IMG/VR virus record: IMGVR_UViG_3300032038_008756
Source of the DNA: an uncultured virus (IMG/VR IMGVR_UViG_3300032038_008756)
Lineage: Duplodnaviria > Heunggongvirae > Uroviricota > Caudoviricetes
Length of the DNA stretch: 20,000 nucleotides
Strand: one strand, 5' to 3'
Position numbers and translations under genes: made by a program. Shown one piece after another: positions 1 to 19,601 of the stretch (its first letter is position 1; each line of letters starts with the position of its first letter). The notes under the pieces were generated by a model. The model was given only the letters and a program-made list of their open reading frames with translations. It searched no databases and was not told the origin of the DNA.

Positions 1-2
1 AA

Positions 3-419
3 GAAGCACTTAAGTTTAAAAATTTATGTGATGACGAAAATATAATATCAGATCTTTGTAAGTATGAAAACAAAGAAAGTGTATTTCATCTTAGAGTTTG
101 GTTTGAAATAAAATTCCTAAATATTTATAATGTTACTGAAACTTCAAATGAACTTAAAAGATGTATGAAGTGCGTTGGAAAGTATGCTTTCTTAGATAAC
201 TTTTTTAAAGATAAAGAATTTACTGAGGTAGATCTTTCTTTAAATTTAGATGAAATTTGGAAATACAAAGCAAGTCGAAGTCTAGATAAAATTAAACCAT
301 ATGAATGTGAAATCTTTAATAAAACTATATGGAGATGGTACAGAAATAGTTCTTGGTACAATAAAAACCTACTTTATAGATTTATAGAATATGATAGAGA
401 TAGGTGTTGGCCCAAGTGA
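3..419 (+). CDS. 5'-partial hypothetical protein, FIEYD-tag family
   Basis: The frame of track ORF 165..419 is open back to position 3 (EALKFKNLCDDENII...), so the gene starts outside the window. Ends ...YRFIEYDRDRCWPK. Confidence 0.8.
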   Translation, partial: EALKFKNLCDDENIISDLCKYENKESVFHLRVWFEIKFLNIYNVTETSNELKRCMKCVGKYAFLDNFFKDKEFTEVDLSLNLDEIWKYKASRSLDKIKPYECEIFNKTIWRWYRNSSWYNKNLLYRFIEYDRDRCWPK

Positions 420-822
420 TAAAATGTATCTTCGTGTCATCTTAGTTGGGGAACTCGAAGAAATTAATTTATTCCTAAATGATAAACCAATACCTCATAA
501 AAATACTAAAGTTGGTCCTTATAAACTAGATGGATGGGTTCATATAGGAGGTAAAATGATGTTTAGATTATTGGAATATCAGGAAGATTATTATCATGTA
601 GTCCAATTCGTAGATAACTTATTTTATCCAAAAGAAATAAAAGAATCCTTTAAGGCAACATATCACATTGATTGTGATCTGGAAAAAGCGTGGAGAGGAA
701 TAACCTATGATAATGAAGATATATATGAGAGGACTATTCAAGAAAGAATTAGAATTTTAAACATACGGGAATTATCATTAAGAGATTATAATCCTAAACA
801 ACGATTTATAGAATATGATTAG
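391..822 (+). CDS. hypothetical protein, FIEYD-tag family
   Basis: 143-aa ORF; its ATG lies in the upstream gene's TTTATAGAATATGAT; ends ...QRFIEYD*. Confidence 0.85.
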   Translation: MIEIGVGPSDKMYLRVILVGELEEINLFLNDKPIPHKNTKVGPYKLDGWVHIGGKMMFRLLEYQEDYYHVVQFVDNLFYPKEIKESFKATYHIDCDLEKAWRGITYDNEDIYERTIQERIRILNIRELSLRDYNPKQRFIEYD

Positions 823-1411
823 AGTAGTATATATAAATGTAGATGGTGGAAGAAATTCAATCTGGGTAAGAATCCCACTAGTTCTAAATTTAGATGCAAT
901 TAAGAAAGAGGAGTTTTTTGGAAAAAGCGGTTCTTTTTTGATCGATAAAAGGTGGGATAGTAATAGATCAGCTACAGAATTTCTAAAGCATAGTGGAGCA
1001 ATAAAGACTTATGCATCTATAGGAGAATTGAAATTCATATCTCGACTATGTTCGGATTTAAATAATATAAAGCCTTTTATATTTTTCCCATACTTAAAAC
1101 TAGATGTTAAAGGAAGATCTTCTAATAAACCTTTTTCTAGAGATAGGATAAAAGAATTAATGAAGGCTAATAAATTATTTATGGGAACTCAACTAGCAGG
1201 TCCTGGAATGGAGACCAATGCTAGAACTATTATTACTGATGCTTTTAATGTAAGGGAATATGAAAATGTCAAAGATCTTTTTAGTAATACAAATTTACCA
1301 AAAGGTGATGCAATTTCCTTTCTAAACCTTATTAATGATAGCGAGCGGTATTTTGGTAAACTATATCAGCAAAGTTTTATAGAATATGATTGGCCGCTCG
1401 ATAAACTTTAA
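815..1411 (+). CDS. hypothetical protein, FIEYD-tag family (paralogue of 2063..2590)
   Basis: 198-aa ORF with KPFIFFPYLKLDVK and QLAGP; ends QSFIEYDWPLDKL*. Confidence 0.85.
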   Translation: MIRVVYINVDGGRNSIWVRIPLVLNLDAIKKEEFFGKSGSFLIDKRWDSNRSATEFLKHSGAIKTYASIGELKFISRLCSDLNNIKPFIFFPYLKLDVKGRSSNKPFSRDRIKELMKANKLFMGTQLAGPGMETNARTIITDAFNVREYENVKDLFSNTNLPKGDAISFLNLINDSERYFGKLYQQSFIEYDWPLDKL

Positions 1412-1425
1412 GAAATCATAGTAAT

Positions 1426-2073
1426 ATGTTAAGAGAATATGAATTTTTTGTAGAAACCAGTTATTATCCACGACTCTTTATTAAAACTAATTTAAAATGG
1501 AATACAGCTTTCGTTAATGAGTATCTTCAAGTAGGTTGGAGAGCGGAAGACAAGCTATTTATGGCAACTTCAACTAATATTAAACATCTAGCACGCTTTT
1601 TAGAGAAGTCTGTTGCTGAAAATGCAATGGTAGTTATGGCTTGTGCGAAAAAGCTCCTTACGAAGGATGAAATAAGAGACTGGTTTGATCTATGTGATTT
1701 AACAACAGAACATTGGATTAAGGTAGGAACAGGAACTTATAACCATTCATTGCAACAGGATTTTAAGGAGTTTGTAAAAACTGGTAATGATAAACTCGTT
1801 ATGAAGTATTTATCAAATCCAGAATTAGTTAGTTTTGCAACTCCTAGAATTGCCGGTCCTAAATGGAAACCGAAAAAAGGAAGAGGTTTTAAAACTTTTT
1901 ATGATATGGATCCTGTATTTGAAGCTGAAATATCCAGAGTTAAGAATCAACATTTAAGAGGGGGTCGTGGACAAGAGGAATTATTAATTAATGGAATTAA
2001 AAATTGGCAAACTGTATTTAACTTAGGGGATTCAGTTTGTTATAAATATAGATTTGTAGAGTATGAAGTATAA
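1426..2073 (+). CDS. hypothetical protein, FIEYD-tag family
   Basis: 215-aa ORF with RIAGPK; ends YRFVEYEV*. Confidence 0.85.
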   Translation: MLREYEFFVETSYYPRLFIKTNLKWNTAFVNEYLQVGWRAEDKLFMATSTNIKHLARFLEKSVAENAMVVMACAKKLLTKDEIRDWFDLCDLTTEHWIKVGTGTYNHSLQQDFKEFVKTGNDKLVMKYLSNPELVSFATPRIAGPKWKPKKGRGFKTFYDMDPVFEAEISRVKNQHLRGGRGQEELLINGIKNWQTVFNLGDSVCYKYRFVEYEV

Positions 2074-2590
2074 GATTGTTAATAAGTACAGTACTATCTA
2101 TCTTCAGGTAAGAATAAAATTTTACAAAGAGAGTATCCCTTTCCTAAAAACATTATTTCGTATAAAAGGGTGGAATCTTATGCCTAAAAATACAGAGAGG
2201 TTTTTAAAGAATAGTGTCAGTGAGTATAACTACCTTGCAATGTATACTTCTTCAGATTGGACAAGTAAGGTAAAAAATATTAGTGATGTTTGTGGAAATA
2301 AACCATTTTATTGGTCACCTTATATTAAAATTAATATAAAAAATCCTGATATTGTTGAATATAGGAAAACTCACGATTTAAAAATTTTCTTAAAAGCCTT
2401 GAAAGAGAAGAATGTATCACTGGAATGGGAGCTTGCAGGTCCTAAGAGTATGAAAAAAGGTAACTATAGTGAAGTTGAATTAGAAGAAAATATCGAAAAT
2501 TACCTAATCCGACTTAATGACACTAAAGCAAAAATAATAGGAACTCTAATTTATGAATGTAATAGACATAAATTTATAGAGTTCGAATAA
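2063..2590 (+). CDS. hypothetical protein, FIEYD-tag family (paralogue of 815..1411)
   Basis: 175-aa ORF with KPFYWSPYIKINIK and ELAGPK; ends HKFIEFE*. Confidence 0.85.
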   Translation: MKYKIVNKYSTIYLQVRIKFYKESIPFLKTLFRIKGWNLMPKNTERFLKNSVSEYNYLAMYTSSDWTSKVKNISDVCGNKPFYWSPYIKINIKNPDIVEYRKTHDLKIFLKALKEKNVSLEWELAGPKSMKKGNYSEVELEENIENYLIRLNDTKAKIIGTLIYECNRHKFIEFE

Positions 2591-2642
2591 AAAGATAGAC
2601 GTAAGTAGTTTAAATAATTACTTATATCTATCTATTTTTTTT
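2591..2642. terminator. bidirectional intrinsic terminator between convergent genes
   Basis: AGATAGACGTAAGTAGTT-TAAAT-AATTACTTATATCTATCT inverted repeat, with an A-run on the left and a T-run on the right. Confidence 0.8.
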
Positions 2643-3355
2643 TAATATTCAATATATTTATACTTATCTCTGCTATTAAAAATTTTTTCTTCTGAAATAG
2701 ACTTTACAATAGCTTTCAAATCATCTCCAATATGCATCCATGTTTTATTAATATCATTCCACTGTCTAATCATAACACACTTTTCTGTGCAATTTATTAC
2801 ACTAAGCTTTAAGTATATCATATTATCAGCTTCACCATTTCCACATCCACAAGTTATAGGATATATCTTAGAGTACACGGGAGAATTATTATAAGTTTCT
2901 TCGCCAATAATAGTGACCCTATTATTTGTAAAGAAAGAATCCCTGTCTGGAACATACCCATTCATATAGATTGGAAATTCCTCTTTTTCTGTAGAGGTTA
3001 GTCCTTCAAGGTGGTTTGGAATTGAGATTGTCTCTTTAATATAAATATAGATCTTTTGTTTAAGGTCTTTTTCTAACTGCTCTAAGTAAAAAACTTCTTT
3101 ATTTTTATAGAAACAGCTTAAAGCAGTACTTAAGTCATCAAGAGTCTTTAATGCATATTCAGGAATTAAAAGATAATCTTCTCTTTGATTTTCTAATATA
3201 GAATAATATCTTCGATTAAATCGAGTATAAACTACTACTGTATAGGATTTATCATACCTTTCTATATACGCCTTTGTATTACTATTATATATAGATATTA
3301 TAAAATCCTTTCTATCCTTATTATAATCTTTTAAAATGTCATCAAACATAATCAA
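2642..3355 (-). CDS. hypothetical protein with FIEYD-like C-terminus
   Basis: 237-aa ORF; ATGA overlap with upstream gene; has CGC; ends DKYKYIEY*. Confidence 0.85.
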   Translation of the reverse strand: MIMFDDILKDYNKDRKDFIISIYNSNTKAYIERYDKSYTVVVYTRFNRRYYSILENQREDYLLIPEYALKTLDDLSTALSCFYKNKEVFYLEQLEKDLKQKIYIYIKETISIPNHLEGLTSTEKEEFPIYMNGYVPDRDSFFTNNRVTIIGEETYNNSPVYSKIYPITCGCGNGEADNMIYLKLSVINCTEKCVMIRQWNDINKTWMHIGDDLKAIVKSISEEKIFNSRDKYKYIEY

Positions 3356-4278
3356 GGATAAAGTTGATATATCATTACATCATCTTCTTGTAAGTTTTCG
3401 ATTGTCTTTTTCCAAATATCCATTTGTTGTTTATAAAATTCTTCTGAAAATTTATCTTTATTATAATAAGTGTACGCTGGAACTAACATTTCTCTTATTA
3501 ATTCTTTTTGGGATTCTGTTGCTGTATCATATGTAAAGAAGGATTTAAGTTGAACTTCTTTATTCCCATGTAAAATTCCGGTAAAGTATCCCATAGCTGT
3601 TTTAAGAATCATTTGAGAAAGTAGTTCTTGTTCTGTATATTTATGTATAGGAATTTCCGATTTAGTAGTAGATGCCCGTTGTTCTTTTTTATACATAGCC
3701 CAAACCTCTTCAGCACTTGGAATATAATCTTCGGGTAATTCTTCTACTACTATTTCTTTTTTCTTAGCTTCGTCTTCCTTTTCTTTGATCCAATTATACG
3801 GAAAGTATACTGAAATTTCTGATCTATCAAATATTCTAGAAATTACTTCATCTGCAGACATAGAACTATCAATATCAGTGCATCTTTCTCTAATTCGTTT
3901 CAGTACATGTGAGTTGACCGTTGTAATATAATGACCAACCCTACCGTCAACTCTATACTTTAGGCCTCTAAAAATTACATAGAAGCTAGAACCATTCGAA
4001 GTAATTCCTTTACAGTGAATATGTGTATCATTAAGTGGCTTTTCTGGTTGTCCCTTCATTCCAGTTTTTATAAACCACTTATTAAAAGTTTTAGAAGAGG
4101 TTATAGTAACTGAACTATAAATCCAATCTTCAATAATTTTCCCCGGCACATTCTTTCTCTTACTTAGATATGGTTTTCTAAGTTTTTCTCTTTCTCTTTT
4201 AATTATCTTCTTGACAAAATCTAGATCAATACTAAGATCTCTGTACAAGTCATTTCCTGTTAATTTTTCTGTTATCAT
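3352..4278 (-). CDS. hypothetical protein
   Basis: 308-aa ORF starting 7 nt downstream of a CCTTATATATG motif; contains SHVLKRIRER. Confidence 0.85.
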   Translation of the reverse strand: MITEKLTGNDLYRDLSIDLDFVKKIIKREREKLRKPYLSKRKNVPGKIIEDWIYSSVTITSSKTFNKWFIKTGMKGQPEKPLNDTHIHCKGITSNGSSFYVIFRGLKYRVDGRVGHYITTVNSHVLKRIRERCTDIDSSMSADEVISRIFDRSEISVYFPYNWIKEKEDEAKKKEIVVEELPEDYIPSAEEVWAMYKKEQRASTTKSEIPIHKYTEQELLSQMILKTAMGYFTGILHGNKEVQLKSFFTYDTATESQKELIREMLVPAYTYYNKDKFSEEFYKQQMDIWKKTIENLQEDDVMIYQLYP

Positions 4279-4285
4279 AATTTTT

Positions 4286-4296
4286 CATATATAAGG
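4286..4296 (-). promoter_or_regulatory. repeated promoter-like motif CCTTATATATG
   Basis: Minus strand reads AAAGCCTTATATATG-AAAAATT-ATG(4278). Confidence 0.7.
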
Positions 4297-4300
4297 CTTT

Positions 4301-4462
4301 AAAGAAAAAAAAGAAAAAGGGAAGGGCGCGATATGCCCTTTATTGTCCTGACTGTGGGCGTTAATAGTTGCGTAGTCCTTTCTTAAGATTTAAATGAGTT
4401 ATATTAGGCGCGTGAACTGCCGCTTACTCATACTACGGCATGTGCCGCTTCCCTTCTTTCAC
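4301..4462 (-). ncRNA. candidate structured small RNA (about 160 nt), unknown family
   Basis: Locally GC-rich and without a long ORF; lies between a motif copy (4460-4470) and a hairpin plus U-tract; 5' AAGAAGGGAAG is complementary to 3' CTTCCCTTTTT. Confidence 0.55.
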
Positions 4463-4470
4463 ATATAAGG
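4460..4470 (-). promoter_or_regulatory. repeated promoter-like motif CCTTATATGTG
   Basis: Minus strand reads TGAAAACCTTATATGTGAAAGAAG; faces the candidate RNA and is divergent from the copy at 4496. Confidence 0.65.
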
Positions 4471-4495
4471 TTTTCAATACCTTTTCAGCCGTAAC

Positions 4496-4506
4496 CCTTA
4501 TATATG
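4496..4506 (+). promoter_or_regulatory. repeated promoter-like motif CCTTATATATG
   Basis: CCTTATATATGTTATGAT, 18 nt identical to 15411-15428; the ATG of nadE follows 2 nt after the motif. Confidence 0.7.
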
Positions 4507-4508
4507 TT

Positions 4509-6401
4509 ATGATGAATAGAAAAGAAGCAAAATTAATAAGAGTATGTGCAGCTATACCAAAAGTAAAAGTTGCAAATGTAGATTATAATGTAGAGCAAAT
4601 TATCAAATTAGTTGATAAAGCTTATAAACAAGATGTAGACGTTATAGTATTTCCGGAGCTTTGTGTAACAGGTTATACTTGTGGAGATCTATTTCACCAA
4701 GAAACCTTAATAGAGGCTGCCGATAAAGGAATTTCTAAAATTCAAGCGGCATCTTTTAAAGCAAAAGAAATGATAATTATAGTTGGTTCTCCTATTCGAG
4801 AATATGGAAGGTTATTTAATTCAGCCGTTGTTATCCAAAATGGAGATCGAATTGGTACTGTTGGAAAAAAGTATCTTCCAGGTTATAAAGAATTTTATGA
4901 AGAACGATGGTTCAGTAAAGATAATCGACCAGCACAAATCTTTAAGACTCCTGATTTTAAGTTTGGAATCGAAATTTGTGAAGATGTTTGGTCAGTAGTA
5001 CCACCTTCTTGTAGGCTGGTTCAAAAAGGCGCTGAGATAATATTTAATTTGTCAGCTTCTAATGAGCTTATTGGAAAGCATGAGTATCTTATGGACCTTC
5101 TTAAACAACAAAGTGCAAGAACAATTGGCGGTTATGTGTATGCTTCATCTGGTTATGGGGAGTCCTCTCAAGATGTAGTTTATGCAGGAAATGCAATTAT
5201 CTATGAAAATGGAAAACTTCTTGCTCAAAGTGAAAGATTTAAAATGGATGAGCAGATAATAGTTCAGGATATTGATTTGGAGTCTATACAAAATGAAAGA
5301 ACTGTTAATACATCATTTGCTAAGTATGTTGGGGCTCTTAAAGCATACCCTAATGAAATTTATCTTCCACTTATCAAAAATCCAAAAGAAGATACTTTGA
5401 GAAAGTATAACGGTCAACCATTTGTTCCAAAGGGTGAAGAACTTAAGAAACGTTGTCAAGAAATTCTTGATATCCAGGTACATGCATTAGCTAAGAGGCT
5501 TGAACATACTGAAATGAAACCAGTAATTGGTGTATCTGGTGGCTCTGATTCGACTTGGGCATTGATAGTAATTATTGAATCGATGAAAAAACTTGGTCGA
5601 CAAATGAGTGATATTGTTGGAGTAACTATGCCAGGTTTTGCTACTAGTTCTAGAACTAAAAATAACTCAAACCTTTTATTTGAGGGTTTTGGAATTACTG
5701 GTAAAGAAATTGATATCAAGGGAATTTGTGAAGCAGAATTAACTGCTCTTGGTCATGATAAAGAGACACAAGATATTACCTTTGAGAATGTTCAAGCAAG
5801 AACTAGAACACAAATTCTAATGAATATTAGTAATCAAGAGGGTGGTCTAGTAATTGGAACAGGTGATCTCTCAGAATTAGCACTTGGTTGGTGTACCTAT
5901 AATGCTGACCATATGAGTATGTATGGAGTTAATGCAAGTATTCCGAAGACACTCATTAAGTCTCTTATTAGGTGGTATGCAGAAGAAAAAGCTGAAGAAA
6001 ATGTACGTGTAGTATTATTAGACATTCTTAATACACCTGTTAGTCCAGAATTAACTGGTAGTGGTGCTGAAGGACAGAATGCACAAGTAACTGAGGATAA
6101 TATTGGTCCGTATGAATTACATGACTTTTTCCTGTATAACATGCTAAGACATGGGTTTGGGCCGAAGAAAATTCTATATCTAGCGAAACATGCAGAATTC
6201 TCTAAGACTTATACACTAGCTGAGCTGAAAAAATGGTTAGAGGTCTTTATAAAGAGATTCTTTTCACAACAATTTAAGAGAAGTTGTCTTCCAGATGGCC
6301 CTAAAGTAGGTAGTATTAGTCTTAGCCCCAGGGGAGATTGGAGAATGCCAAGTGATGCTTGTAAAGATGAATGGTTTAAACAAATAAAGGATTTTCAATG
6401 A
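4509..6401 (+). CDS. nadE: glutamine-dependent NAD+ synthetase (nitrilase-type glutaminase domain plus synthetase domain)
   Basis: E-K-C triad motifs FPELCVTGY, KKYLPGYKEFYEERWF, EICEDVW; synthetase motifs GVSGGSDST, ENVQARTR, GTGDLSE, FKRSCLPDGPKVG. Start moved from 4440 to ATG 4509 (or 4512), just after the motif. Confidence 0.97.
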   Translation: MMNRKEAKLIRVCAAIPKVKVANVDYNVEQIIKLVDKAYKQDVDVIVFPELCVTGYTCGDLFHQETLIEAADKGISKIQAASFKAKEMIIIVGSPIREYGRLFNSAVVIQNGDRIGTVGKKYLPGYKEFYEERWFSKDNRPAQIFKTPDFKFGIEICEDVWSVVPPSCRLVQKGAEIIFNLSASNELIGKHEYLMDLLKQQSARTIGGYVYASSGYGESSQDVVYAGNAIIYENGKLLAQSERFKMDEQIIVQDIDLESIQNERTVNTSFAKYVGALKAYPNEIYLPLIKNPKEDTLRKYNGQPFVPKGEELKKRCQEILDIQVHALAKRLEHTEMKPVIGVSGGSDSTWALIVIIESMKKLGRQMSDIVGVTMPGFATSSRTKNNSNLLFEGFGITGKEIDIKGICEAELTALGHDKETQDITFENVQARTRTQILMNISNQEGGLVIGTGDLSELALGWCTYNADHMSMYGVNASIPKTLIKSLIRWYAEEKAEENVRVVLLDILNTPVSPELTGSGAEGQNAQVTEDNIGPYELHDFFLYNMLRHGFGPKKILYLAKHAEFSKTYTLAELKKWLEVFIKRFFSQQFKRSCLPDGPKVGSISLSPRGDWRMPSDACKDEWFKQIKDFQ

Positions 6402-17167: not shown

Positions 17168-17431
17168 TCAGGGTTTTCCCAGAATCCTTTTAAATTTTTC
17201 CAATATTAAACCAAGACCACTAGGATCTCCAGCTTTCATTGCTCTTTCAAGATCATCTAGAACTGGTAATACAGACTTAATAACATCCTCACCAGCATAT
17301 TTCTTTAGATCTGAAAGTTCTTTTGCACTGCGAATCTTATAATTTTCAAATTCACGTTTGGTCTGTGCTATCCTCTCCTTCAAGATTTTAATCTCTTCTT
17401 GATACTCTGCCAAGCTCTTATAATCATCCAT
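17168..17431 (-). CDS. grpE: GrpE nucleotide exchange factor, helical part only (truncated)
   Basis: EFENYKIRSAKE...KYAGEDVIKSVLPVLDDLERA...GLGLILEKFKRIL; the C-terminal beta domain is absent. Confidence 0.8.
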   Translation of the reverse strand: MDDYKSLAEYQEEIKILKERIAQTKREFENYKIRSAKELSDLKKYAGEDVIKSVLPVLDDLERAMKAGDPSGLGLILEKFKRILGKP

Positions 17432-18123
17432 GGTAAATTATTATAATCACTAAATCCGTATAACCCACAACTAAAGAATTCATGAACCTCTATAATAGTT
17501 GTTTCAAAAAATGATTCATGTGAATAAACTGCAAAGTCTATTGAGTAAGCTTCACAATTCATTATCCCATTTTTAACTTTTTCTCGTATTACTTCGGGAT
17601 TCGGAAATCTTAATGGATCTCCTGAATAATTTTGAACTCCTAGTATTTGCTTGTTTCTTATAAATACTCTCCATTCAGATTCAATAGTAAGAGGTCGTCG
17701 TACTTGATATATTATATTCGGATTTATTTTATCAGGATCCAAAATTCCATTTTCTGGAGCTTTAAATTCTACCGTTGACTTAATATAATATTTTCCTTTC
17801 CTACTAACTAAATCTTTTCCTAAAACTTCCTCTACACCAGCCCAACTTTTAAATGGAACTGGAACGTTTAATGGCTTTATTACTTTATGGTCTCCTAGAA
17901 AAATATCTATAAAAGTAAAAACATACTCTAATGTTCCTACTGGGATATAGTCCCTCCAATTTTCATCTTTTAAAGTTCTTAGTTCTTCAAGGCCTACAAA
18001 TTCAAAATCAAATTGAGATTGGCCATTATTCTTCCAAGTATGATATTCGAAAGACCTTAGAAGCTCAAAAACAAAATCTAATGTTACTTCACCGTTTATT
18101 GTTTGTAATAAAAATTTTATCAT
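17380..18123 (-). CDS. ATP-grasp domain protein, DUF4343/R2K-like
   Basis: IPVGTLEYV, YYIKS, SEWRVFI, AYSIDFAV, IIEVHEFFSCGLYG. Confidence 0.8.
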   Translation of the reverse strand: MIKFLLQTINGEVTLDFVFELLRSFEYHTWKNNGQSQFDFEFVGLEELRTLKDENWRDYIPVGTLEYVFTFIDIFLGDHKVIKPLNVPVPFKSWAGVEEVLGKDLVSRKGKYYIKSTVEFKAPENGILDPDKINPNIIYQVRRPLTIESEWRVFIRNKQILGVQNYSGDPLRFPNPEVIREKVKNGIMNCEAYSIDFAVYSHESFFETTIIEVHEFFSCGLYGFSDYNNLPWMIIRAWQSIKKRLKS

Positions 18124-18188
18124 AATCTATTTAGTTTTTACTAAGGTATCAGGAATATTCTCAATACCAACCTTCAAAATTGCTTTCT

Positions 18189-19601
18189 TTATAATACTCC
18201 AATTTCTCTTGCTTTTTGATATAATAATTCTTTAAGAGGTTCTGGTTCATTTGGAACAGTATTATCTAAGACAGCATCCTTTAAAGCCTGTTTTAAGATA
18301 CCAACTTCACGAGAAGGTCTTAGATTGAGAAGCTCCATAATCTGATTTCCATCAATACAAGGTTGAAAAAGTCGTTTAAAGTCTCGTTGTTTTAAATCTT
18401 CGATCATTTCTCTAACCTTTTTAAAGTTATTTAGGAAATGCTGTTTTTTCTCTAAGTTTCTGGTAGTAAGATCACATTCACATAGTGTCATAAGATCATC
18501 TATATAATCTCCTGCATCACTACATAATCTTCTTACAGCACTATCTGTAACCTGATCATTGGCAATAATTTGAGGTCTCATATGAAGTTCTACCAATGTT
18601 TGAACATATTTCATCTCTTCTCCTAAAGGTTGTTTCATTCTAGCGAAGAGTTTTGGTATCATCCTAGCACTCATATGTTCATGATCATAAAATGTCCAAC
18701 CCTTTACAGGATCATGCCTTTTTGTAGGTTCTTTGCCAATATCGTGAAGCAATGCCGCCCATCTTATCCACAACCCATCAGATCTTTTGGCCATATTATC
18801 TAAAACGTTAACACTATGCCAAAAATTATTTTTGTGGAAATCAACATAATCTTCACCAACCTTATCATTTGTATCCAGTACTGTCAGTTCAGGAATAATC
18901 TGCTGTAATAATCCAGCCTCTTTTAGAAGAACAAATCCTCTCTTAGGATCTGAACTAAGAATAATCTTATTAAGTTCATCCGTAATTCTTTCCTGCACGA
19001 TTATCTTTAAACGTTGTGAATTTTGACATACACCTTGCCAAGTAATCTGATCAATATCAAAACCAAACCTAGTTGCAAACCTAATACATCTAAGCATGCG
19101 AAGAGGATCATCTGAAAAAGTAATCGTGGGATCAGTTGGAGTTCTAATTATACCATTCTTTAGGTCTTCTATGCCATTAAAAGGATCAACTAATTCTCCA
19201 AATCTGCTCTTGTTTAAACAAATAGCCATAGCATTAATTGTAAAGTCTCTTCTAAGCTGATCATCTTCTAGAGTTCCATTTTCTACAATAGGATTTCTAG
19301 ACCCTCTTTCATATGATTCTTTCCTTGCTCCAACAAACTCTACCTCAATGCCATTATAATTAACCATTGCTGTTCCATAAGATTGATAAATACTAAGTTT
19401 ACCACCAACTCTTTTATGAAATGCTTTAGCCATCTGTATCCCAGATCCAACTACTACAATATCAATGTCATGACTAGGATAACCTAAGATTAAGTCTCTA
19501 ACGTATCCACCTATTACATAACATTCAATTCCAAGTTGATCCGCTATATCAGAAATATCTTTAAAGACTTTTTGTTTCTCTAATTCACTAAATATTTTCA
19601 T
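18189..19601 (-). CDS. cca: tRNA nucleotidyltransferase (CCA-adding/poly(A) polymerase family) with HD domain
   Basis: GGYVRD..DIDI, EFVGARKESY, RRDFTINAMA, DDPLRMLR, LLHDIGK; resembles the Bacteroidota-type enzyme. Confidence 0.92.
   Translation of the reverse strand: MKIFSELEKQKVFKDISDIADQLGIECYVIGGYVRDLILGYPSHDIDIVVVGSGIQMAKAFHKRVGGKLSIYQSYGTAMVNYNGIEVEFVGARKESYERGSRNPIVENGTLEDDQLRRDFTINAMAICLNKSRFGELVDPFNGIEDLKNGIIRTPTDPTITFSDDPLRMLRCIRFATRFGFDIDQITWQGVCQNSQRLKIIVQERITDELNKIILSSDPKRGFVLLKEAGLLQQIIPELTVLDTNDKVGEDYVDFHKNNFWHSVNVLDNMAKRSDGLWIRWAALLHDIGKEPTKRHDPVKGWTFYDHEHMSARMIPKLFARMKQPLGEEMKYVQTLVELHMRPQIIANDQVTDSAVRRLCSDAGDYIDDLMTLCECDLTTRNLEKKQHFLNNFKKVREMIEDLKQRDFKRLFQPCIDGNQIMELLNLRPSREVGILKQALKDAVLDNTVPNEPEPLKELLYQKAREIGVL

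Follow-up and report, generated by a model that had tools for sequence, protein, structure and literature searches.

Nine adjacent genes of an uncultured phage encode proteins with a common C-terminal [RKS][FY][IV]E[YF] motif

The array and its terminal motif

At one end of the 20,000-nucleotide stretch analysed here (the window), which belongs to the uncultured Caudoviricetes record IMGVR_UViG_3300032038_008756, lies a cluster of small adjacent genes, A to F, whose products all carry the pentapeptide [RKS][FY][IV]E[YF] at or close to the C-terminus. The initial annotation had described six open reading frames (ORFs) with a C-terminal 'FIEYD' tag, and all six ORFs and their tails were recovered at unchanged coordinates. 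The motif was confirmed in every one of them, but the array turned out to be larger: the related contig AUXO015727460.1 (L001) holds A to F in identical order and, immediately upstream of A, three further genes with the motif (X, Y and Z), giving an array of nine.

Gene A (3..419, plus strand), of which the window edge leaves the 3' part, encodes a full-length protein of 193-194 aa; RFIEY lies at 378-392, eight residues follow, and the ATG of B sits inside the motif. The same arrangement is found in B (391..822, plus strand, 143 aa), where RFIEY at 802-816 is followed by D and the stop codon and contains the ATG of C, and in D (1426..2073, plus strand, 215 aa), where RFVEY at 2050-2064 is followed by EV and contains the ATG of E. 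Gene C (815..1411, plus strand, 198 aa) carries SFIEY at 1373-1387 and then DWPLDKL. Gene E (2063..2590, plus strand, 175 aa) ends with KFIEF at 2570-2584, a single E and the stop codon, has no nested start and is followed by no gene on the same strand. Gene F (2642..3349, minus strand) has KYIEY at 2645-2659 immediately before its stop codon; its start is most likely the ATG at 3349, which is used by 13 of 13 full-length homologues, and its product probably has 235 aa rather than the 237 aa that had been given as the upper length of the complete genes. Residues 1-40 of F (window 3240-3349) weakly resemble residues 36-72 of a non-array gene (L001 3957-4694; z score 3.7, hhalign E value 0.012), a hint that F may be chimeric. 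The three upstream proteins end in RFIEYCFI (X, 179 aa), RFIEYGNIQDNE (Y, 227 aa) and KYIEFLYI (Z, 183 aa). Across the nine proteins the motif is followed by 0, 1, 1, 2, 3, 3, 7, 7 and 8 residues, the adjacent position being D, D, D, E, G, E, C, L or the stop, and the glutamate of the motif is invariant.

In the genes examined the motif is confined to this cluster. A six-frame translation of the 20-kb window contains its shorter form, [FY][IV]E[YF], six times, in every case at one of the six C-termini of A to F. The full pattern matches nine times in 44 genes (34 of the window and 10 upstream genes of L001; 9,138 aa), always 0-8 residues from the ends of the nine adjacent genes, and is absent from the remaining 35. 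Because the pattern had been defined on A to F, an independent test was sought in the upstream genes of L001; X, Y and Z provide this out-of-sample test, the chance of at least three matches among the 10 genes being about 3e-7. The chance of finding the motif in the tail of F alone is about 0.0013.

None of the nine proteins matched Pfam, PHROGs, NCBIfam or PADLOC at the curated cut-off or at E<0.01, the family libraries gave no match to PF12699 or any other described family, and sequence searches against solved structures returned nothing significant for the array proteins. Word-index searches found only close relatives (79-97% identity) or fragments, and ESM Atlas held no usable match for D or B. 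Searching 50,697 phage records by tblastn with D and with the 308-aa neighbour of the array yielded no hit; locus scans with the array proteins found none in viral contigs, species genomes or a first metagenome scan, and a second metagenome scan found one locus, AUXO015727460.1. A profile of C, D and E matched five proteins among 1.84 billion representatives, three of which are C, D and E of the clade itself; another is a spurious repeat protein. The fifth, P0011, the single member of its cluster on a 1.3-kb contig, joins an unrelated N-terminal half to the C-terminal half of D; this fusion is probably a misassembly and possibly a real chimera. Literature searches, which did not extend to subscription journals, found nothing on such an array, and the papers containing 'FIEYD' were unrelated by title and the start of the abstract. 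The array family is an orphan within the collections searched, and it matches no described family.

Constraint on the motif

The motif coincides in part with gene junctions. The ATG of the next gene spans the Tyr codon and the following codon in Y, A, B and D, and the residue after Tyr is therefore D, E or G there; where no start overlaps, it is C, L, E, the stop or, in C, D. The proposed tag FIEYD thus stands as far as its core is concerned, which is common to all nine proteins, but its final D or E is mostly a by-product of the next gene's ATG. Gene C keeps a nested ATG that opens only an 11-codon frame (1386-1421), with the stop 4 bases before the start of D, possibly a relic or a coupling mini-ORF. 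The tail of C had been read as one substitution (TAG to TGG) away from a terminal tag, which is true at the sequence level, but WPLDKL is invariant in 15 of 15 homologues and is hence a fixed extension.

One explanation of these junctions is that the constraint acts on the nucleic acid, as an initiation or coupling signal, a promoter or a recombination site that merely chances to read FIEY. The nested ATG in four of the nine genes (Y, A, B and D), a 19-20-nt direct repeat at four window junctions and the D, E or G after Tyr all agree with it, as does the A at -3 of the nested starts, a positive determinant in Bacteroidetes according to parts of PMC6847099. However, only two (-3 and -13) of the four adenine positions that this source, in the same parts, describes as favoured at Flavobacterium starts are occupied, the gene order is identical in the window and L001, and X, Z, C, E and F, whose next annotated gene starts outside the core, keep it all the same, at both convergent ends as well. 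Third codon positions vary with local codon use, and a synonymous AGA/CGA change is seen. We regard this explanation as very improbable. A promoter at every junction was rejected, as a perfect TAnnTTTG occurs only in the motif of D.

The distinct codon variants of the motif point to the peptide instead: relative to the consensus, eight of nine are synonymous or conservative, against 17 of the 45 possible single changes (38%; p=0.0025). Since the five-residue core is present in all nine genes, including the convergent ends of E and F, since its variants are mostly synonymous or conservative, and since its codon choice tracks local codon use, the core is selected as a peptide, and translational coupling accounts for the last letter only. 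Selection on the peptide, which the initial annotation had suggested, is further borne out by the homologues (up to 15 listed per cluster, clusters having 1-28 members). The motif is retained in 146 of 147 distinct full-length homologues; the sole exception, an A homologue with an altered and probably frameshifted end, was excluded from the column counts. Variable columns number 2 of 45 in the motif and 382 of 1702 elsewhere (p=0.001), and the difference persists for the same residue types (F/Y/I/V/E/R/K; 2 of 45 against 155 of 784, p=0.004). The motif of X, Y and Z stays unchanged although the eight residues that precede it vary, one Z having a deletion there; in D and E these eight vary slightly. 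For a possible connector ahead of the motif the polar fraction is 0.47-0.67. All homologues come from one close clade (79-100% identity) and therefore permit no judgement on the long-term stability of the motif.

The ratio of nonsynonymous to synonymous substitution rates (dN/dS) between the window and L001 is 0.09 for A, 0.12 for B, 0.11 for C, 0.49 for D and 0.26 for both E and F, a range of 0.09-0.49, and 12 neighbouring genes gave 0.09-0.50. Genes A to F are under ordinary purifying selection, and there is no sign of a hypervariable locus.

The protein bodies and a parallel array

With the motif removed, C and E align at z=7.9 (0/500 shuffles; best of 108 control pairs 2.7; hhalign E=8e-5) and D and E at z=5.9 (0/500 shuffles; z=4.1 with other orthologues). 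All three are collinear from end to end, with common FL..S, Cys and AGP positions up to the motif. Judged by these scores, C and E are paralogues and D and E probably are, while Z and D (z=5.8 over 36 residues in a different register; hhalign E=3e-4) and A and B (profile comparison, E=0.08) are possible paralogues. The bodies had been called mostly unalignable, which holds for X, Y and F, the last lacking any detectable relation to A to E, but not for C-E and D-E. Fainter similarities extend further. Y, Z, A and B, together with C, D or E, have a similar second N-terminal strand (0-2/40 shuffles, 0-5/60 control sets), a subset that was picked by eye; an ISDLC-like segment seen by eye in A, C and E has statistics no better than a control gene; and the best 10-residue block common to the nine bodies scores 404, above 40 shuffles but not above the control sets (maximum 416). 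Part of the array is thus a paralogue family, and the rest may be older members or unrelated carriers.

If the nine are such a family, the motif could be only the last core strand of a shared fold, or an active-site strand with a functional Glu, binding nothing outside its own protein. The paralogy of C and E, which are collinear up to the motif, suits this explanation, as do the absence of the motif outside the cluster in the 44 genes and the loose distance to the C-terminus (0-8 residues), which is what a structural strand would show. A helix precedes the motif in both AlphaFold2 models, those of E (46 rows, predicted local distance difference test (pLDDT) 44.8) and B (27 rows, pLDDT 38.8), which are of low confidence and do not place the motif. 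ADP-ribosyltransferase and PD-(D/E)xK nuclease folds were considered for their motif likeness, and the models are too poor for fold comparison. No fold search with them reached Z>=5 or E<=0.001, which excludes nothing. However, exact residues are kept across the nine in no other strand, comparable residues elsewhere are less constant than those of the motif, and X, Y and Z tolerate changes, and a deletion, in the residues that lead up to it. We consider a purely internal strand rather unlikely, and yet a contender to be taken seriously.

A related phage holds a second array. A search with nadE returned six loci, one of which, IMGVR_UViG_3300045988_177552 (304,892 bases), has at least 11 genes, the 308-aa neighbour among them, in common with the window and L001. 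An FIEY array is lacking there, with one terminal motif match in 546 ORFs. The minus strand carries, between the purA-like gene and the nadE region, 11 consecutive genes of 98-219 aa (L018:3685-8427, about 193,685-198,427 of the record), all ending exactly in [KEA]G[IV]LF, an ending found in no other gene of this phage (0.014 expected among 378). The same purA-nadE interval carries [RK]FIEY in the window lineage and [K]G[IV]LF in the related 305-kb phage. The G[IV]LF genes differ in codons, stop codons and linkers and have no nested starts, and their bodies look like one family, with a helix-strand-strand pattern and an invariant Trp. Their resemblance to the tail-sheath C-terminal domain is faint and not significant (PF17482, E=0.029 in 1 of 11; two sheath chains, E=0.6-0.9). 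We take the LF ending to recall sliding-clamp-binding motifs. Of the two endings, G[IV]LF is the better candidate for a true terminal tag. The second array is an analogy, yet it shows that terminal pentapeptides are the most constant part of arrays kept by this phage group. Further relatives were sought with gltX, the 308-aa gene and a nuclease-like gene, which found none or only the 304,892-base record.

The G[IV]LF tails also bear on the idea, close to that of the initial annotation, that the motif is a portable address label for loading, sorting or turnover, spread by recombination at 3' ends onto unrelated proteins. These tails have the look of genuine terminal tags; in X, Y and F the FIEY motif goes with bodies of no detectable homology; F lies on the opposite strand and has the weak N-terminal resemblance to a non-array gene noted above; and, as described in parts of PMC2988020, gp43, gp55 and gp33 of T4 offer a precedent of unrelated phage proteins with a swappable C-terminal epitope. 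Nevertheless, the carriers are all adjacent, none occurs among the other 35 genes, several carriers are paralogues, and the position of the motif relative to the C-terminus is not fixed. A label on a set of variable cargo proteins, as first proposed, is not supported in that form, given the paralogy of C and E (and probably D) and the confinement of the motif to one cluster in 44 genes, and we judge the portable label distinctly unlikely. C-terminal degrons have a fixed position at the extreme carboxyl end. Because 0-8 unrelated residues come after the motif, a degron read at the free C-terminus, another of the functions suggested at the outset, is unlikely.

Possible role of the motif and genomic surroundings

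The explanation that we favour, tentatively and as something short of probable, is a duplicated and diverged family whose last strand is a constant element docking on a common partner or on a sister paralogue. The nine genes would stem mostly or wholly from an old tandem expansion of one orphan gene. Their bodies would have diverged near or past recognition, leaving constant a C-terminal helix-loop-strand that ends in [RKS][FY][IV]E[YF] and would serve as the family's common working surface: the short strand may dock each protein on one shared partner, for instance a hub protein of the host or the phage, or else a sister paralogue, and the variable body may give each protein its own specificity. 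Duplication would also have copied the gene junction, so that the next ATG came to lie across the Tyr codon and the following codon in four cases, where it would couple translation and fix the following residue as D, E or G. Docking is suggested because exact residues, including the invariant Glu, survive across the nine proteins only in the motif; exact identity limited to one pentapeptide would exceed what the upkeep of a fold usually leaves. The shared docking or sorting signal of the initial annotation survives to this extent: the nine proteins have no other segment of equal conservation, which agrees with a shared interaction. What we infer is a common ancestor of the nine, the strand nature of the motif and its binding to a partner. 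The setting of the array, among metabolic genes and behind host-type promoter-like elements, suggests that its products act inside the infected cell and not as part of the virion.

Several results weigh against this docking family. Direct similarity of C and D is nil (z=-0.2), D-E is weak by hhalign (E=0.075), and the bodies of X, Y and F show no detectable similarity to other members in pairwise or profile comparison. The link from A/B to C/D/E is weak: 2/300 shuffles reached it, and a control gene gave 4/300 against the C/D/E profile; unrelated ORFs scored above C on the A/B profile, and the N-terminal similarity across all nine was equalled by 6/60 control sets. In A, B, C and F the invariance extends to the residues before the motif, which is no isolated island there. 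A prediction of a C plus E complex returned 'no answer' (score 0.00, partner fold uncertain) and was not used as evidence. The G[IV]LF array is not detectably homologous to the nine (best z=3.9 of 121 pairs, no profile match) and serves as an analogy only.

Expansions of paralogues in giant phages and a shared C-terminal docking epitope in T4 are known already (parts of PMC5694885, PMC7824862 and PMC2988020). According to parts of PMC5694885 and PMC7824862, paralog family B of SPN3US comprises 20 head proteins (gps 83, 138-154, 161 and 237), its family A corresponds to PF12699, and Bacillus phage G has a zinc-ribbon expansion of about 35 copies. The array resembles these families in that an uncharacterised gene of a giant phage exists in adjacent, diverged and lineage-restricted copies, and it has the neighbours homologous outside the motif that mark a paralogue family, certainly by the scores above for C and E and probably for D and E. 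It has no sequence link to them, and its conservation across members has shrunk to five residues, unlike theirs; whereas SPN3US families A and B are shown virion proteins, the array genes sit among metabolic ones (purA-like, nadD-like, gltX, fmt and nadE). What it shares with the T4 epitope (gp43, gp55 and gp33; parts of PMC2988020), the model of a common docking tail, is a short motif, hydrophobic and acidic, with which several phage proteins end or nearly end, here under protein-level selection. The T4 carriers are described there as unrelated, with a divergent connector, and both their sliding-clamp binding and their interchangeability as shown, whereas the array carriers are neighbours and partly paralogues, their motif has a different sequence, and their docking is putative. 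The NAD-jumbo phages of animal guts (Li et al. 2024, PMC11662467) are similar in having nadD-like and nadE genes close together, which here flank the array; this comparison covers the phage type and not the array, and the abstract and first third of the Results of that paper make no mention of such array genes.

Arrays of uncharacterised paralogues take up much of the genome in jumbo phages. That nearly all shared constraint has fallen to five residues gives one testable surface for nine unknown proteins, and the second phage adds an independent eleven-gene array with a different exact terminal pentapeptide. We speculate, as a doubtful but attractive extension, that a lineage-specific five-residue address label plugs diverged accessory proteins, via one terminal strand, into a single host or phage hub, and that the label changes between lineages. 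Such a label, if real, would amount to a modular adaptor or sorting system without a described counterpart in this phage group, with the two peptides as ready baits for finding the hub; if the motifs are true docking tags, short synthetic peptides could find the addressed hub in gut bacteria. If they are only fold remnants, the array is one more orphan family of modest interest.

The source phage is most likely a jumbo phage of a gut clade of more than 370 kb, since members of the array-protein clusters sit on a 373,550-base contig; a capsid gene was not among the genes seen. With a GC content of 28-35% the window is AT-rich; besides many unknown ORFs it contains genes for a glutamine-dependent NAD synthetase, a tRNA nucleotidyltransferase, a BRCT protein and an ATP-grasp protein. 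The stretch, whole or in part, is present in 20 of 24 listed runs. Contigs of four runs (one gut and three bovine gut metagenomes; two RNA libraries) match it piecewise at high identity and, aligned to 1-4400, show no joints, being unable to show absence. On one side of the array stand purA-like, nadD-like, gltX and fmt genes, on the other the 308-aa gene and nadE. Host-like metabolic and translation genes are dense at L001 1444-7128 and window 4440-6401 and 17168-19601, and the set (purA-like, nadD-like, gltX, fmt, nadE, GrpE-like by eye, ATP-grasp and tRNA nucleotidyltransferase) fits the NAD-jumbo phage type. L001 1-1413 encodes a large unknown protein with no Pfam match and three homologues (649-727 aa, 33-40% identity) in the 304,892-base relative, which is another small expanded family.

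Between the convergent genes E and F lies a hairpin (2593..2633) with A and T runs at its flanks, of -17.3 kcal/mol on the plus and -13.4 kcal/mol on the minus strand; it is a probable two-way terminator and is not among the matches listed by the consensus scan. The element CCTTAT[AT]T[AGT]TG recurs where transcription units begin, often just 2 bases ahead of the start codon, with nine copies in the window (4296-, 4470-, 4496+, 8345+, 9289+, 11442+, 15411+, 17118+ and 17164-), copies at 1431+ and 7653+ of L001, and 21 in IMGVR_UViG_3300045988_177552; the shorter CCTTATWT has 12 matches against 3.85 expected. It is probably a promoter like the Bacteroidetes -7 box, which would imply very short leaders. 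Its resemblance to the Bacteroidetes promoter box TAnnTTTG, as given in parts of PMC2483708, is the sole basis on which a Bacteroidota host is suggested. One such promoter-like element (4286..4296, minus strand) stands upstream of the 308-aa gene (3352-4278) that precedes F. A near-match to CCTTATWTDTG inside C (1327..1337, plus strand) is a weak candidate for an internal promoter element upstream of D and E. Contigs of RNA libraries from two studies both start at 1350/1351, just 3' of this element, and span D into E (window 1350-2285), a weak hint of an internal D-E transcript.

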